Source of the DNA: a virus
Taxonomy: Duplodnaviria; Heunggongvirae; Uroviricota; Caudoviricetes
Strand: one strand, 5' to 3'
Length of the DNA stretch: 15,215 nt
Virus record (IMG/VR): IMGVR_UViG_2627853678_000004
Position 1 is the first letter of the stretch. The number at the start of each line of letters is the position of its first letter. The notes under the pieces are model-generated. The model was given only the letters and a program-made list of their open reading frames with translations. It was not told the DNA's origin and made no database searches. Of the stretch, positions 2,055-13,955 are shown in pieces. A program made the position numbers and the translations under genes.

Positions 2055-2879
2055 CTATTTTTTATCCAGCTTCTTGGCGGCAGATTCTAATTGTTTGATG
2101 CTTTTTTCCGGTACGGGCAGATTCTCTGGCATTGTCCCGCCTAGCTCCTGGATTGTTTGCCTAACTTTCCGGCCGACCTCGAAGTGAGTTTCATTAGCTT
2201 TTTGCTTCGATTTAACATTATCTCTGCGGAGCTTTTCTTCTGCCTGAGTCGCTCGGAACAGGTTGGCTGCCAATTCGGTAGAACCCATGTGATCGAGTAT
2301 CTTTTGGCTCTTTTTAAGACCTTTTCGCTGATGGATAGCCTTTTGGTCTAACCCGCCATAAAGCCCCTTGTATCCGTGATTCTGGAAGATTGCAAAGTCC
2401 AATGTTGTTTCAACACCAGCTTGCTGTGCTGCCTCAACAAGTTGCTTGTTGTGTTCCTTTAACTCGTTTCGGAGAAAAAGGCGCTTTTGATCCTCGCGGA
2501 GTCGCTTGAATGTTTCATCGTCAGCTAGTTCTTGCCGTCTGGTCTGTATTGCAAAATATGTTTGCCCAGCAGCAATAACTGGCTTGCTAGGATCGCCGTT
2601 CTGCACAACTAGATAGCAGGCATATCTGGACAAATGAACATCTTCCAACTCTCGTTGGGCACCAGACCCTAGAACAACCATTTTGGTGGTATCAACGAAA
2701 TGGTCTGAAACCTCTTGGTTGCTGGTTTCACACGCCTGAGCTGCTCGTGATAGAACGTTTTGAAAGTTTCGCCAATCTCGATAATCCAGTAGTGGTGCCA
2801 AATCTCTTGCTGACCAATATTCCTGCCCTTCGCTTCCATATTGTCGTAAGTCTTCAAATGGTTGATGGTGCTCGTTCAT
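2055..2879 (-). CDS. DinD-like paralog (274 aa), probably element-borne
   Basis: Full-length ORF starting MNEHHQPFEDLRQYG..., roughly 85-90% amino-acid identity to the adjacent dinD by eye but clearly diverged at nucleotide level. Same GGAGTG-type Shine-Dalgarno. No CTGT-N8-ACAG box is visible in its upstream region 2880-3013. Confidence 0.75.
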   Translation of the reverse strand: MNEHHQPFEDLRQYGSEGQEYWSARDLAPLLDYRDWRNFQNVLSRAAQACETSNQEVSDHFVDTTKMVVLGSGAQRELEDVHLSRYACYLVVQNGDPSKPVIAAGQTYFAIQTRRQELADDETFKRLREDQKRLFLRNELKEHNKQLVEAAQQAGVETTLDFAIFQNHGYKGLYGGLDQKAIHQRKGLKKSQKILDHMGSTELAANLFRATQAEEKLRRDNVKSKQKANETHFEVGRKVRQTIQELGGTMPENLPVPEKSIKQLESAAKKLDKK

Positions 2880-3013: not shown

Positions 3014-3373
3014 ATGAGAATGACCAACCGCAAAAAAGAGATACTCAGCTACTTTGAGCCGGATAACCTCGAATGGGTGACAGGTGAGATTGGTGCGCCG
3101 CCGTTCGATGTATCGGGCGTGGCCTACCTGCTTCACGGCATGGTGTCGTTCGATAATCGCCACCAGCTCGAATCAACCCGGCGCACGCTGGAAAACATGG
3201 TTGCTGGTGGACTGCTTGAGCGGGTGACAGTGTATGAATCGCGCCAGATACGGCGCGGCGGTGAGACTAACGCAACGGTCGTGCGCTACGGTTTACCCGG
3301 TCAGTGCGCTGTTATGCGCGATACTGGCGGCGCTGATAACGCAATATCAGGTGAATACATGCGGGTCAGTTAA
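3014..3373 (+). CDS. hypothetical protein (119 aa)
   Basis: The only convincing plus-strand ORF in the window; non-repetitive protein-like composition (MRMTNRKKEILSYFEPDNLEWVTGEIGAPPFDVSG...). An AGGAA lies upstream, and 3020 is an alternative ATG. I do not recognise the family. Confidence 0.45.
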   Translation: MRMTNRKKEILSYFEPDNLEWVTGEIGAPPFDVSGVAYLLHGMVSFDNRHQLESTRRTLENMVAGGLLERVTVYESRQIRRGGETNATVVRYGLPGQCAVMRDTGGADNAISGEYMRVS

Positions 3374-3908
3374 TAGCCTGCAATCTGTCGTTGATGCGGC
3401 TCAGGTCGTAAACCCGGCGTTCAATATCCAGCATCAGGAAATTGTGGATCTCGGCCTGCTCAGGATTATCAGACTCTCTGGCCTGTAATAGCAATTCATT
3501 GTAACCATGCAAGCCGCCTGAGTTTTCCGCCGGGGTGGTGCCTTTCCCACGCAGGCAGCTAATGGGCTGATTGCTCGTATCGTGTGTTTGCTTCTCCAGC
3601 ACAATGACGCAATCCCACCAGTCGCCAAAGTCATACGTGTAAACCAGCTTGTCACCATCATTCTGGAGCGCTGCCCATAGTGGTGTGATTGCCGCATTAC
3701 CCATGCTTTCATCCTCACCCCATACGCGATACTCGCTACCGGGATCACCTTTACGCCCTTTCTCGAACATATACAGGTGTTCGTCATTCCAGCCAAAAGC
3801 CAACTGGATCACCGCGTGAAGTTCACTAAAGGGGATTTGCTCTGGAACCAGCACACGCCGCCATATAGGTGGTTTGCTGTCTCGGATGGTTATCTTTAGC
3901 TGGTACAT
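3366..3908 (-). CDS. pRiA4b ORF-3-like family protein
   Basis: Start placed at the internal ATG 3906-3908 (MYQLKITIRDSKPPIWRRVLVPEQIPFSELHAVIQLAFGWNDEHLYMF...), with AGGA 7 nt upstream. The YQLK...PPIWRR...GW.D.HL pattern is the recalled signature of the pRiA4b ORF-3-like domain. The six-frame ORF extends to 3956 without support. Confidence 0.6.
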   Translation of the reverse strand: MYQLKITIRDSKPPIWRRVLVPEQIPFSELHAVIQLAFGWNDEHLYMFEKGRKGDPGSEYRVWGEDESMGNAAITPLWAALQNDGDKLVYTYDFGDWWDCVIVLEKQTHDTSNQPISCLRGKGTTPAENSGGLHGYNELLLQARESDNPEQAEIHNFLMLDIERRVYDLSRINDRLQAIN

Positions 3909-3991
3909 GCAAATCCTGAATAAATGCGAATCGGAAGGATAACGATACTGACGCACTCACAATTCTGTAAAGGTGAATAAAGGTAATTTGC

Positions 3992-5743: not shown

Positions 5744-6205
5744 TCAGAATGGCGTTTCATCGTCGAATGGTGGGCGCTGGTCAAAATCATCAGGGGTGTT
5801 ATATAGCTCCCATCCCGGCGCGGATTGCGTTTCGTGGCCCCTGCTGGCTCCACTTGCTTTGACTGACTCGGCCCGCTTCCCGCCGGGGCGTACCGTTCTG
5901 GCGCTGATCACGCTGTCGGCTACTACCTGATACCCCTGCTGTGTACCGCCATCCTTGCCCGCCCACTGATTGACCTGCATCGCTCCGGCAACACTGACTA
6001 AATCGCCTTTAACGTGTCCTGCCAGTGCGTCGGCCTGTTTGCCGAATGCCACCACGCCCAGCCAGAAAGTAACCTCTCCGCCCTCTGCTGCATGGCAAGG
6101 CAGTGCCACCGCTAAACGCCCCATTGTCATGCTGCCGCCGCTGTTTGTCGTTCTGGTCTGGGGATCTGCCACCAGCCGCCCGTAGGCTGATATCTGTGCT
6201 GTCAT
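5744..6205 (-). CDS. ssb: single-stranded DNA-binding protein
   Basis: 153 aa with OB-fold-like N-terminal region, a Gly/Gln-rich linker and the acidic C-terminal tail FDDETPF typical of bacterial and phage SSBs. GAGGT Shine-Dalgarno. Confidence 0.75.
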   Translation of the reverse strand: MTAQISAYGRLVADPQTRTTNSGGSMTMGRLAVALPCHAAEGGEVTFWLGVVAFGKQADALAGHVKGDLVSVAGAMQVNQWAGKDGGTQQGYQVVADSVISARTVRPGGKRAESVKASGASRGHETQSAPGWELYNTPDDFDQRPPFDDETPF

Positions 6206-6307
6206 TTTGCGAATACCTCGAATTATTAGTTTTGCTAATGAAGATTGCCCGGCACCGTCTTATTGTGGGACACCTTCGCCAGATTTTTTTGTATATAACA
6301 AAAATAG

Positions 6308-6567
6308 TGTTGTCTCTGTTGTCTTTGTTGTCTCACGGCTCTACAGGCCGCGCCACGTCTGGGTTTTGCTGAGACAACATTTGCAATTTCGTGTTGTCTC
6401 ACCCGGCATAAATGTTGTCTCACTGCCTGCCGGACTAAAAACACACGTTCGCCCTGTTGTCTCAAAATGGCTAAATGTTGTCTCAATGTTGTCTCAAAAA
6501 TTAAAATAAAATCCTTATAAATCAATGTAACTTACAAAATGAGACAACAAAGACAACAGAGACAACA
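6308..6567. repeat. iteron array and AT-rich tract: putative replication origin
   Basis: Eleven copies of TGTTGTCTC or its complement, counting two one-base variants. A perfect 27 bp inverted repeat (6308-6334 against 6541-6567) brackets the region, and an AT-rich tract lies at 6496-6540. The array sits directly 3' of the primase-helicase gene. Confidence 0.6.
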
Positions 6568-6592
6568 CTAAAACTACGTATGTGAAAAAAGA

Positions 6593-9352
6593 TTATTCTT
6601 CTGGCTGGCTGCTTTCCTCATCCATGAAGTTGAGCACATAAACGCGAATTTGCCGCCCTCCTTCCCTTACCCGCCCCTGATAACCTCGCCCGCTCGTTGG
6701 TGGTGTTAGCATTCCTGCATTCTTGAGAACTTCGGCAAACTGCCTGACATTAAAACCCCGTGCGATCTCCTGCTCAAATGTTGCCGGGAAGGTGTAGAAA
6801 ATTATCGGGTCGCCGTCGTGGTTCCCCTTCTTCCTGTACCCGGCTAAATCACGGATGGGTAAATCGCGCGGGTCATAACCCAGCGGCGCGAATCTACTCA
6901 GCCCATAGGCATTTAAAAACGCCTCCGTCTGCTCGATGATCTGCTGGTGCTCTTTGTTCCCCGTGCCGAACTCTTTCAGCCATGCGTTATAGGTGTGCTG
7001 TATCGCATCCCGGCACGTTTGAGCATCCCAGCCAGTAACCACGCCACCCAGCAGTAAAGCGGCCTCCAGAATGGCGAACCTCGCCCCTACACGGTGAACC
7101 TGTTCCCCATAGTCAGCAGGGATTAGACTTCGCCATCGGGCTTCACACTCACGAACGGCATCAATCGCCTGCTGCTGGTGGTCTGAAAGCCATCTAATCC
7201 ACTCCCGCCCGGCAGCGCCATGATGGTGCTGGTAAGCGTCTTTCAGCGCGTCGGCGTGATCTTTCCCTGTCTGGTGCTCATGAAAGCGCACCGCCTTACT
7301 CAGCGGGATATTCAGCAGTCGCACCAGTTGCCCCGCTTTTGTCTTGCGTCCTGCGGTGGCGATGAACGTTTCTAAATCCATTTCCCCGGTGCTGATTGCC
7401 ACGGTGCGCCAGCGTTTCAGATCCCGGTTGCCTCCTTCCTTTGCTCCCTGCAATTTCCCCACGCCGTTAAACAGGGCATAGGCAGACTGAGAAACGCTTA
7501 TCGGGTCTGCGCCCTGTCCGACTTCATCCAGCGGCATCAGCCCGTCATTGTGGGCGGCGGCCTCGTTTATCAGCCCCAGCGCCGTCCCATACCACGTCAG
7601 GCGCAAGGCATCAGGGTTGCCGTAAAGACTGCTCGCCACGTTCTGCGTGGTTGTTTTCCCGGCGCTCGATTGCTCATAAAAATGAATCCCGAATCCGTCA
7701 CGATCTGCCACCCCGATTAATGGCGCTGCCAGTGCTGCGGCGATGCCTGTCATCATCGCGTAGTTGCCGTATGCCAGCCGCGCAACACTGTTAAGCCAGC
7801 TTTCAGGCGTTCCTGCTACGGTATACCCGGCAGCGGCTGAACTGCGCCCGCTGAACAAAACAGGCCGCTGAGGTGTGCCGATGATTTCCCCGTCCGGCAT
7901 GATGTATGCCCCACACTGCCAGCCTGTAGCATGAGCAACGCGCCACAATTCACGCGAGCCGCTTCGCTGTAACCAGTCGGCAAGAATCGCCCGTAGGCTG
8001 TTTTTCGTTGTGACGTTGACGCCACCAGCTTTCAGGGTGCGCCAGCCTTCACGCTCGCCAATATCAGCCAGCGGGATAGCCGCTGTTGTCCGTATGCCTG
8101 CACCGAATGCCAGCCATGAGATAATAAGATACTGATCTTTGTCGTCGCGTCCCGTGCCGATAACCTCCAACGGTGAACATAACCAGCTTTCAGCGTTGAT
8201 GATCTCCCCGCTTTCCTTGTCCACCTTCGGCGTTACCCAGAAAACGCCATCTTTTCGGCTCTCAATGTGGGGTTTTAGTGGGTCTTTCTCTGGATGGTCA
8301 GTTTTACCGCCCTCAATGGCCTGCAATCGTGGTTTAACGGCTTCCCCTTGAATCTGGTACATCGAGTCGTTAAACGCAGCCGTAGCGACTTCCAGCCCGT
8401 TTTGCTGGTGGTGGTCGTTCCAGTCGGCTTTGTAGTCTGTCGGCGGCAGTGCCACCCATCCAGCCACGGACAAGGCGGCTTTCTCTGCGGCCTCCCTGCC
8501 TGTATTGGCTTCTCCGTTTTGGTGGTGGTCGTTGTCTGCGGCGATGATTATTTGTGCCTGTGGATACTTCCGGCGCATCACTTCGGCAACGGGTAGCAGG
8601 TTGCCCGCGTCAATTGCTGCCACTGCCAGCGCGTCCGGGCGCATCAGGTGAACTGAAAGGGCCGTCGCCAGCCCCTCGGCAATTAAAACGCTCTGCGGCG
8701 ATTCTGGCGCGTTTACGGCGTGATATGCCCCGCGCTTTGCCGAACCCGTCAGAAGTCGCTTTTCTCCATGCGGTGTAATGGTCTGCGCTGCTGCCACTGC
8801 GCCGGATTCATCCACCAGCTCCAGCAATAACGAACCATCTGGCATTAGCGGGTAATTAAACCCGGTCAGCCCTTTTGATTGCAGGTACTCAGCTTCGCCC
8901 TGTATGGCTCTCTGGCGCATTCCGGCATACAGACGGGAAAACGTAGCCCGGCGCTGCTCTGCGTCCTCTGCGGCCTTTTTCTGTCGCTCCTGCTCATGCC
9001 GCTGGCGGTCTGCGGCTAACTGCGTCTGTCTCTGGCTGGCAGCGTCTGGTGCTGGTTCTGCGGCCCGGTAATCAATACCCAGCACATCAGCGGCAAGGTG
9101 CGCCGCCTCCGTGGTGTCGCAGTTGTTAACCCGTTTGATTAAATCCAGCCCATCGCCCGCGCCGCACTGATTGCAGATAAAGCTACCTCGCCCGTTGTCG
9201 TCGAATCTGAAACGGTCTTTCCCACCACATGCAGGGCAGGGGGCATGACGGCGCGATGAATCAGGAACGTCGATAGACAGGCCAGCCAGCACATAAGGCC
9301 ATTTACCAGCGGCGGCGCTGGTCACTTCGCGGATAATGTCGATATTACGCAT
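6593..9352 (-). CDS. primase-helicase (zinc-ribbon, TOPRIM and P-loop domains), P4 alpha-like replication protein
   Basis: 919 aa. N-terminal CPACGG...FICNQCG zinc ribbon; TOPRIM-like segment (AEGLATA...IIAADNDHH...GEANTGREAAEKAA); C-terminal P-loop region (SSAGKTT Walker A-like, MPLDEVGQ Walker B-like). GGGAGG Shine-Dalgarno before the ATG at 9350-9352. Confidence 0.85.
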   Translation of the reverse strand: MRNIDIIREVTSAAAGKWPYVLAGLSIDVPDSSRRHAPCPACGGKDRFRFDDNGRGSFICNQCGAGDGLDLIKRVNNCDTTEAAHLAADVLGIDYRAAEPAPDAASQRQTQLAADRQRHEQERQKKAAEDAEQRRATFSRLYAGMRQRAIQGEAEYLQSKGLTGFNYPLMPDGSLLLELVDESGAVAAAQTITPHGEKRLLTGSAKRGAYHAVNAPESPQSVLIAEGLATALSVHLMRPDALAVAAIDAGNLLPVAEVMRRKYPQAQIIIAADNDHHQNGEANTGREAAEKAALSVAGWVALPPTDYKADWNDHHQQNGLEVATAAFNDSMYQIQGEAVKPRLQAIEGGKTDHPEKDPLKPHIESRKDGVFWVTPKVDKESGEIINAESWLCSPLEVIGTGRDDKDQYLIISWLAFGAGIRTTAAIPLADIGEREGWRTLKAGGVNVTTKNSLRAILADWLQRSGSRELWRVAHATGWQCGAYIMPDGEIIGTPQRPVLFSGRSSAAAGYTVAGTPESWLNSVARLAYGNYAMMTGIAAALAAPLIGVADRDGFGIHFYEQSSAGKTTTQNVASSLYGNPDALRLTWYGTALGLINEAAAHNDGLMPLDEVGQGADPISVSQSAYALFNGVGKLQGAKEGGNRDLKRWRTVAISTGEMDLETFIATAGRKTKAGQLVRLLNIPLSKAVRFHEHQTGKDHADALKDAYQHHHGAAGREWIRWLSDHQQQAIDAVRECEARWRSLIPADYGEQVHRVGARFAILEAALLLGGVVTGWDAQTCRDAIQHTYNAWLKEFGTGNKEHQQIIEQTEAFLNAYGLSRFAPLGYDPRDLPIRDLAGYRKKGNHDGDPIIFYTFPATFEQEIARGFNVRQFAEVLKNAGMLTPPTSGRGYQGRVREGGRQIRVYVLNFMDEESSQPEE

Positions 9353-10612: not shown

Positions 10613-10781
10613 GATGGCAGCCTCTATACAGTGAATTTTGAATTCACCACCAAGAGACGCCAATCTCAGACTGGTGGTGAGCTGAACAAGGTTGGCGTAA
10701 CCGGCCTGTATAGACACCGGCCTTCCTTTCGGAAGCCTCATCCAGCCCACCATAATTTGGGTGCGCAGGAATTTTGCCGAC

Positions 10782-10804
10782 AAAAAAACACGCTTAGTGC
10801 GTGT
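10782..10804 (-). terminator. putative intrinsic terminator or attenuator in the leader
   Basis: On the minus-strand RNA, ACACGC-loop-GCGUGU (6 bp stem, 5 nt loop) is followed by UUUUUUU. It lies inside the long non-coding-looking region upstream of the small-ORF/primase operon. Confidence 0.35.
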
Positions 10805-11132
10805 CGGCACTATACAGGTTATCGGGACGCCAATCCCGGCACCTGATTTTGCAGGTGCGCTATAACCATAAACCGGGTTGGCGATAGTCGGCAAGCCCTT
10901 TTTTATGGACTCGCAAAACTCACCTTCGCGCGTGCGCGTACTGGTCGCAAAACTCGAAAAAAACTTAGGATTTATTAGGATTCGCAGCCCAATTCTCAGC
11001 CCAGAAAACGCCTCTAAAATGTCGTCATTTGTCGCAACGGCGCGGCGATGAATGTCAGGTTTTGACAGGTTGTAAGGGTTAACATTTGTTAACAGGCTAG
11101 CCAGATTAAAGGCTTCTTTCTGGGCGGCAGGT

Positions 11133-13840: not shown

Positions 13841-13955
13841 CGCGTCACCTTTCACGCTGTGCCTTAAAGAGTGATTGAGCCAGGCGGTAAGGCTTCCCGC
13901 TTTTCGCCCCGTCGGGCTAGGCTCAATCTGTCCTCTGATTCTTTACATATCTTGG

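Follow-up and report, generated by a model that had tools for sequence, protein, structure and literature searches.

PICIs of Gram-negative bacteria have their replication origin immediately 3' of the gene for the initiator, and it consists of sets of iterons that flank an AT-rich region (Fillol-Salom et al. 2018, PMC6092414). In EcCICFT073, the segment that comprises pri-rep and ori is a replicon, and both parts are needed (PMC6092414). A survey includes DUF927 primases among the primases of Gram-negative PICIs, with the origin downstream of pri (PMC10111431). The SaPIs have a similar arrangement: passages of PMC9371898 describe, from Ubeda 2007/2012, 6–12 iterons that surround an AT-rich centre and lie immediately downstream of rep. 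According to the same passages, each side has at least two iterons, the two sides point in opposite directions, and the iterons are read by a winged-helix domain within the C-terminal domain of Rep. Two hexamers of Rep are thought to self-load, one on either side (as stated there).

Here we describe a repeat array that fills the 387-bp gap between two genes of a 15,215-nucleotide viral contig (the window, by which we mean the whole stretch of DNA that we analyzed). A first-pass annotation had proposed that an iteron-type origin lies here, directly downstream of a primase-helicase gene. Our results support this, in that the layout matches that of the published PICI and SaPI origins. By this analogy, we propose, with a probability of roughly 85%, that 6305–6570 serves as the origin for vegetative replication of a Gram-negative PICI-type satellite located at yicC-dinD in E. 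coli. This architecture has been known from SaPIs since 2007 and from Gram-negative PICIs since 2018, and will not surprise a specialist. What is new is the conserved scaffold in 40 loci, the five classes of iterons, and that the class tracks a motif at residues 893–897 of the initiator. The anatomy of the array, its conservation, the covariation of the iterons with the C-terminal domain of the initiator, and the homologies of the proteins were all established directly.

Gene content of the island

The array is part of an island of ~13 kb that lies between dinD and yicC in E. coli. Of 5,426 complete E. coli genomes, 33 have the same DNA in their chromosome (99.8% identity). All of the island's genes are on one strand; they include int, an AlpA-type regulator, antA, an Icd/Ash-like gene, a DUF4222 gene, pri-rep, ssb, and perC. 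The set and order of int, alpA, pri-rep, ssb, and perC, together with the yicC-dinD site, identify a Gram-negative PICI-type island. The island has the features by which these are recognized: a size within ~10–15 kb, a unidirectional int-alpA-pri-rep arrangement, and a PICI-specific att site. (PMC6092414 lists yicC-dinD as the attachment site of a PICI, EcCIRM13514. The published att core of EcCIRM13514, GAGCAGATTCAA, is absent from the window.) The array lies between these two genes:

6593–9352, minus strand: pri-rep, 919 amino acids, with a Zn-ribbon and TOPRIM primase, a DUF927 AAA+ helicase/initiator, and a C-terminal domain
5744–6205, minus strand: ssb, directly downstream of the array and part of its replication module; EcCICFT073, EcCI042, and EcCIRM13514 likewise have ssb in this module

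The next gene after ssb is perC. EcCICFT073 is the same type of island and has the same order of DUF4222, pri-rep, a gap, ssb, and perC. However, the two islands have Pri-Rep proteins of unrelated sequence, and the iteron in EcCICFT073 is CTGTCTACC instead of TGTTGTCTC. This is a counterpoint to our proposal: the Gram-negative PICI origin that has been validated experimentally has an unrelated initiator. Compared to the EcCICFT073 type, the origin in the window is of a long form, with 12 sites, and its inverted repeat of 31 bp is perfect. The initiators of EcCIRM13514 and EcCI042 are described as "DNA primase family protein" and "helicase RepA family protein," and it is only by annotation that we set them apart from the window's. 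The "DNA primase family protein" of ATCC 25922 has 584 amino acids, the same as CFT073's, and we liken the two by length only. The fourth published Pri-Rep allele from a Gram-negative PICI is that of EcCIED1a, from E. coli ED1a.

Arrays of repeats with inverted symmetry are also known at parS, pac, and cos sites. So we also considered that the array might be a packaging site (pac or cos) or a centromere-like partition site. This seems extremely unlikely, as we found neither par genes nor a terminase gene on the island. Also, the location of the site right after the initiator gene, and its covariation with the C-terminal domain of the initiator (see below), suggest that the protein that binds the site is the initiator.

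The array is inside a co-directional operon, and a scan of 6100–6700 predicted no terminator around it, so transcription across the array would not count against an origin. The same scan for promoters and terminators gave no signal on the gene (minus) strand above what was expected from shuffled sequences. No Rfam family was found at the array; sub-threshold matches to plant miRNAs just mirror the long inverted repeat. We found no tRNA genes.

Elsewhere in the window, Rfam models for the C4 antisense RNA (10670–10757), isrK (10783–10858), and the c4 a1/b1 targets (10819–10871) match the minus strand at gathering level. These matches are in the region of the Icd/Ash-like gene and together form a P4/P1-type RNA immunity module. 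Rfam also places an int-alpA RNA (13861–13927, minus strand) in the interval that separates int from the gene next to it. There are two adjacent dinD paralogues with Bro-N domains, at 880–1716 and 2055–2879 (both on the minus strand), one of which is the host's copy and the other is borne by the island. Both match PDC-S13, a candidate defence family from PADLOC (E = 1e-125). A gene of the PRiA4_ORF3 family is at 3366–3956. Among IMG/VR contigs, the class A iteron triple (defined below) occurs only in IMGVR_UViG_2700989566_000001 (13,892 bp), which has its origin at nearly the same coordinates as the window. This record is probably a provirus entry for the same island.

The repeat array and its spacer

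If one mismatch is allowed, the 9-mer TGTTGTCTC has 15 sites across the 15.2-kb window, of which 12 fall within 6308–6567. By chance, 3.0 ± 1.7 sites would be expected in the whole 15.2-kb window, and none of 200 shuffles reached 15. The cluster of repeats is real and is far beyond chance. Within the array, ten iterons match TGTTGTCTC exactly and the other two are TGTTGTCTT. (The first-pass annotation had noticed the clustering and the two one-base variants, with a total of eleven copies instead of 12.) The array begins 26 nt past the stop codon of pri-rep and ends 102 nt short of the start of ssb (6205). From pri-rep towards ssb, its parts are:

6541–6567, minus strand: proximal iteron triple, the tandem 9-mers TGTTGTCTC, TGTTGTCTT, TGTTGTCTC; one arm of the 31-bp inverted repeat
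6496–6540, no strand: AT-rich spacer, 45 bp, 13% GC; the proposed DNA-unwinding element
6455–6495, plus strand: three iterons facing the proximal triple, at 6487–6495, 6476–6484, and 6455–6463, with spacing of 11 and 21 bp
6371–6421, mixed strands: distal iterons 7–9, at 6413–6421 (plus), 6392–6400 (plus), and 6371–6379 (minus)
6341–6362, no strand: GC-rich block without iterons, CCAGACGTGGCGCGGCCTGTAG (minus strand), flanked by iteron 9 and the distal triple
6308–6334, plus strand: distal iteron triple, mirror of the proximal triple; the other arm of the inverted repeat (6305–6335)
6282–6304, no strand: AT-rich tract of 23 bp, after the distal triple

The spacer divides the array into three iterons and nine, and the orientation is opposite across it, with the three facing the nearest three of the nine. 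Iterons 7–9 start 42, 21, and 21 bp from the start of the previous site. With spacings of 11, 21, 42, and 21 bp, the sites that are not in tandem lie on one face of the helix (they are helically phased). The inverted repeat is perfect, as had been claimed; its arms (6305–6335 and 6540–6570) have 31 bp each, and the 27 bp that had been reported are the core of three tandem 9-mers, without the flanking bases.

The spacer has a GC content of 13%, versus 51% for the window. It is the window's least stable 45-bp duplex (rank 1 of 15,171 by nearest-neighbour free energy; −45.3 versus a mean of −63.4 ± 4.8 kcal/mol, or 3.8 SD below the mean). With the iterons numbered from the pri-rep stop codon, it separates iteron 3 from iteron 4, and so it is within the array; an AT-rich tract had been recognized before, but was placed adjacent to the repeats. 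Inside the spacer, TTGATTTATAAGG (6513–6525, minus strand) is conserved across the iteron classes, and it does not match the consensus for IHF or DnaA.

Plasmid iteron origins of the RepA class, such as those of pSC101, R6K, and P1, have direct iterons of ~17–22 bp, DnaA boxes, and an IHF site. The array does not fit this class, because the units in the array are 9 bp and occur in both orientations, because the one match that resembles a DnaA box (6581–6589) is at chance level, and because our scan of the array region found no IHF consensus. (The DnaA box-like match is conserved in 9 of the 40 loci described below.)

The distal half of the array also contains sequence other than iterons. The GC-rich block at 6341–6362 forms a weak hairpin on the plus strand, and a block similar to CTGGCTGGCAGT (minus strand) is at 6422–6433. 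Both the CCAGACGTGGCGCGGCCTGTAG block and the CTGGCTGGCAGT-like block are conserved in classes A, B, and C, despite their differing iterons. Directly after the distal triple is an extended −10-like element, TGnTATATA (~6290–6301, minus strand). As a possible ssb-perC promoter, it could be occluded when the initiator binds.

Could the region encode a protein instead? There are two open reading frames, at 6207–6509 on the plus strand (100 amino acids) and at 6235–6525 on the minus strand (96 amino acids). Both have TTG starts and neither has a match in Pfam or PHROG, and their translations consist of RQH/RQQ and VVS repeats derived from the iterons. Furthermore, both frames are broken in three close relatives (L003–L005, with Pri-Rep 88% identical), where the longest open stretch is 61–63 amino acids and is in a different frame. 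PGAP does not call a gene at 6207–6525. A coding function thus has a practically negligible chance of being correct, and we agree with the first-pass annotation that the two frames are artefacts of the repeats.

Spacing and iteron classes among relatives

We scanned one genome per species and found 63 related loci across the Enterobacterales. We compared 40 loci: the window and 39 full-length loci with 56–96% identity to its Pri-Rep protein. We aligned the proteins (alignment A1) and the 500 nt past the stop codon (alignment A2).

All 40 loci have an array of a repeated 8-mer, which begins 29–54 nt past the stop codon (most often 30–36). The iterons fall into five classes, GTTGTCTC, GTTGGTTC, GTCGGTTC, GTCGGGTA, and ACGGGTTA, and within a locus the sequence changes in concert at all sites. 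GTTGTCTC (class A) is found in the window and in L002–L005 and L013; GTTGGTTC (class B) is found in 27 loci; and the remaining loci have GTCGGTTC, GTCGGGTA, or ACGGGTTA. A search for the same iterons after the primase genes of related elements had been suggested from the window alone: an array is present in every locus, but the window's own iteron is present only in class A.

In contrast to the iterons, the scaffold is fixed. Spacing within the array is constant to within a few bp across the 40 loci. In the window, with the two orientations shown as > and <, the starts past the stop codon are >30 >39 >48, the 45-nt spacer, <101 <112 <133 <175 <196 >218 <262 <271 <280. The spacer is 44–45 bp in nearly all of the loci (median 45, maximum 63), with a mean GC content of 0.21. 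Fixed positions with a concerted switch in sequence are what would be expected of sites that are read by one co-evolving protein.

Every one of the 40 loci has a core of six iterons (the proximal triple, the spacer, and the three facing iterons), with occasional degenerate units; a few relatives have only two recognizable units in the proximal triple. About half of the loci have a long form, with a full or nearly full array (10–13 sites). The others have a short form, with the first six iterons or fewer, and in some of these ssb follows directly. Since about half of the loci have the short form, the distal half is optional. Six-iteron examples include L009, L014, L018–L020, and L031, as well as L071 (E. 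coli A28). Within E. coli, the long form of class A and a six-iteron form of class B are both found. The optional half (6308–6421) could be a crr-like enhancer or a copy-control (handcuffing) element, rather than being part of the origin proper.

We also considered that the array might be a transcriptional operator, through which Pri-Rep or another regulator of the island controls ssb-perC, and that it has no function as an origin. The array is in the 387-bp gap upstream of ssb, the −10-like element lies just beyond the distal triple, and half of the array is missing in about half of the relatives, all of which would fit an operator. However, the consensus scan did not find a promoter on the minus strand, and relatives that have other genes in place of ssb still have the six-iteron core. 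Also, the window's least stable duplex is flanked by opposed iterons, as it would be in an origin. An operator without an origin is therefore improbable. That said, an origin and autoregulation are mutually compatible, and a role as an operator may be an additional function of the array. Separately, just upstream of the ribosome-binding site of ssb is a palindrome, ATTAG-N5-CTAAT (6225–6239), which is conserved in classes A, B, and C (at about columns 508–535 of alignment A2). A possible function is control of ssb, either as an operator or as an RNA hairpin.

In class A, the two 31-nt arms of the inverted repeat are identical to each other in all six elements, even where the elements differ from one another (T to A at a junction, and TAG to GGG in the flank). 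The identity of the arms within each element (including L003–L005 and L013) points to gene conversion or to selection that keeps the inverted repeat perfect. In class B, the arms differ from each other by 1–10 mismatches; given these, the inverted repeat is probably not required as a cruciform or hairpin.

Pri-rep genes and origins of the enterobacterial type (84–96% identity) also turned up in assemblies labelled as Bacteroidota and Firmicutes, namely Chryseobacterium sp. 18061 (L006) and Paenibacillus oleatilyticus (L064). The likely cause is contamination of these assemblies.

Pri-Rep and the proposed mechanism of initiation

The 919-amino-acid Pri-Rep contains the domains Zn_Ribbon_Prim, Toprim_3, and DUF927 (E = 7e-49 for DUF927 in Pfam). 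Residues 11–336 align to the alpha protein of P4 (39% identity; hhalign E = 3e-44), and past residue 336, hhalign detected no similarity to alpha. Instead, residues 471–816 match the Rep initiator-helicase of SaPIbov1 (8tch; E = 3e-7). Also, the top fold match for an AlphaFold2 (AF2) model of residues 440–919 is Cch from SCCmec (5dgk; Foldseek E = 4e-8, ~530 columns). Among proteins with solved structures, Rep and Cch are the nearest to this part of Pri-Rep. The helicase/initiator part is a DUF927 protein of the SaPI Rep/Cch type, which is an MCM-like AAA+, and it is not of the alpha type. So the label "P4-alpha-like," which the first-pass annotation had given to the whole protein, holds for the primase domain and not for the helicase/initiator. 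Many homologues of the helicase and C-terminal part have ~705–715 amino acids and contain DUF927 only, with neither TOPRIM nor Zn-ribbon, so the primase domain appears to be a swappable N-terminal module. (Cch is also of the DUF927 family and lacks the fused TOPRIM primase.)

The similarity to alpha raises the possibility that this is strictly a P4-type system, in which the cluster is a homologue of P4's ori or crr and is bound by a C-terminal winged-helix domain of the alpha family. P4 is a satellite as well; its alpha has a homologous Zn-ribbon/TOPRIM primase, its crr iterons also lie directly downstream of the alpha gene, and it shares the C4/isrK immunity RNAs with the island. However, the helicase and DNA-binding domains of alpha are not homologous to those of the window's Pri-Rep. 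In P4, ori is 4.5 kb from crr and both are made of repeats of the octamer TGTTCACC, while the window has a single cluster. And, as had been noticed at the outset, the window's iteron, TGTTGTCTC, is unlike P4's. A strict P4-type system is highly improbable.

The SaPI modules (SaPIbov1, SaPI1, and SaPI5), as described in the passages of PMC9371898, share more with the window: a DUF927 MCM-like self-loading helicase, 6–12 opposed iterons, and an AT-rich region. Relative to that description, the window's iterons are 8–9 bp instead of 5–6 bp, and its AT-rich region is off-centre (3 versus 9 iterons), which is a second counterpoint to our proposal. The window also differs from SaPIs in having the fused primase of the P4 alpha/TOPRIM type and a Gram-negative host.

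In these passages, the iterons of SaPIs are read by the C-terminal domain of Rep. The corresponding part of the window's Pri-Rep is encoded next to the array:

6596–6877, minus strand: C-terminal domain coding region, ~residues 826–919; the AF2 fold is beta-beta-alpha-alpha-beta-hairpin and resembles a winged helix

A first AF2 model, of residues 780–919, had a pLDDT of 60, and a fold search with it gave no significant match. In a second model, of residues 440–919, the C-terminal domain had a pLDDT of about 74–88 and the ATPase core was poorly predicted. The best local fold match for the C-terminal domain is TcpK, with an RMSD of 2.2–2.6 Å over 60 residues, which is not significant (E is about 0.1). 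TcpK is a winged helix-turn-helix protein whose structure was solved on oriT DNA. A profile search of the C-terminal domain against the sequences in the PDB returned only spurious matches to HCN channels. Overall, the models suggest, if weakly, that the C-terminal domain is winged-helix-like. In AF2, residues 893–897 (codons at 6662–6676) are at the tip of the beta-hairpin, after two helices.

Only seven columns of the protein alignment fully separate class A (TGTTGTCTC) from class B (TGTTGGTTC): residues 841, 893–897, and 911 of 919. The class A motif is GYQ-GRV--RE-G, while class B invariably has G[YF]Q-RKS-PRI. The C-terminal domain is otherwise divergent within class B, and the RKS-PRI motif is constant. 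L016 has an iteron that is one base off from class B, and its motif is RKT-PRI. Other variants occur in classes C to E. L013 is 76% identical to the window's protein overall, which is below the class B proteins (84–86%), yet it has the window's iteron and the window's last ~115 residues. This covariation at residues 893–897 supports the idea that the C-terminal domain of Pri-Rep recognizes the iterons. Binding by this domain of the initiator had been predicted by the first-pass annotation, and the class-separating columns argue in its favour. The co-inheritance of the domain and the iterons could in part reflect linkage in one recombination block, instead of direct readout, since the codons for the C-terminal domain are only 60–240 nt from the iterons.

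More tentatively, the Pri-Rep family might be a natural series of specificity swaps, in which the scaffold of 12 or 6 sites is fixed and the identity of the iterons is set by 3–5 residues at the tip of the hairpin. We give this somewhat less than an even chance. The pairing that would go with it, which is part of the same tentative reading, is GRV-RE with GTTGTCTC, RKSPRI with GTTGGTTC, and RKTPRI with GTCGGTTC.

We propose that Pri-Rep would recognize the 9-bp iterons via its winged-helix-like C-terminal domain, with specificity that comes largely from the hairpin tip (residues 893–897). Hexamers would assemble on the opposed sets of iterons that flank the 45-bp spacer (6496–6540) and melt it. 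The DUF927 AAA+ helicase would load itself, the fused TOPRIM primase would prime synthesis, and the island's own SSB, from the gene just downstream, would coat the single strands. The core origin would be the six proximal iterons and the spacer (6455–6567), and the six distal iterons (6308–6421) would be an optional accessory half. We infer the binding, melting, and replication by analogy to the systems described above and from the covariation.

Full-text searches for the iteron strings returned only papers about primers and aptamers; these searches cover text and not figures, such as Fig. 2a of PMC6092414. In our search of the full-text literature, we found no text that describes the window's iteron or the origin of this allele.

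If our proposal is correct, it assigns the cis-acting origin of a widespread satellite replicon of enterobacteria, with relatives across the Enterobacterales. It also corrects the family to which the replication module is assigned: it belongs with the Rep-type modules of PICIs and SaPIs, and not with those of the P4 alpha type. Five classes of iterons on one scaffold, each with its own short C-terminal motif, offer a testable view of how self-loading helicases of the Rep type read their origins. If the family is indeed a series of specificity swaps, then it would provide a readable code for how initiators recognize origins, and it would define replication-specificity groups among co-resident satellites. 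The pairing of iterons and motifs also makes it possible to ask if satellites that reside in the same cell avoid cross-talk through the specificity of their origins.
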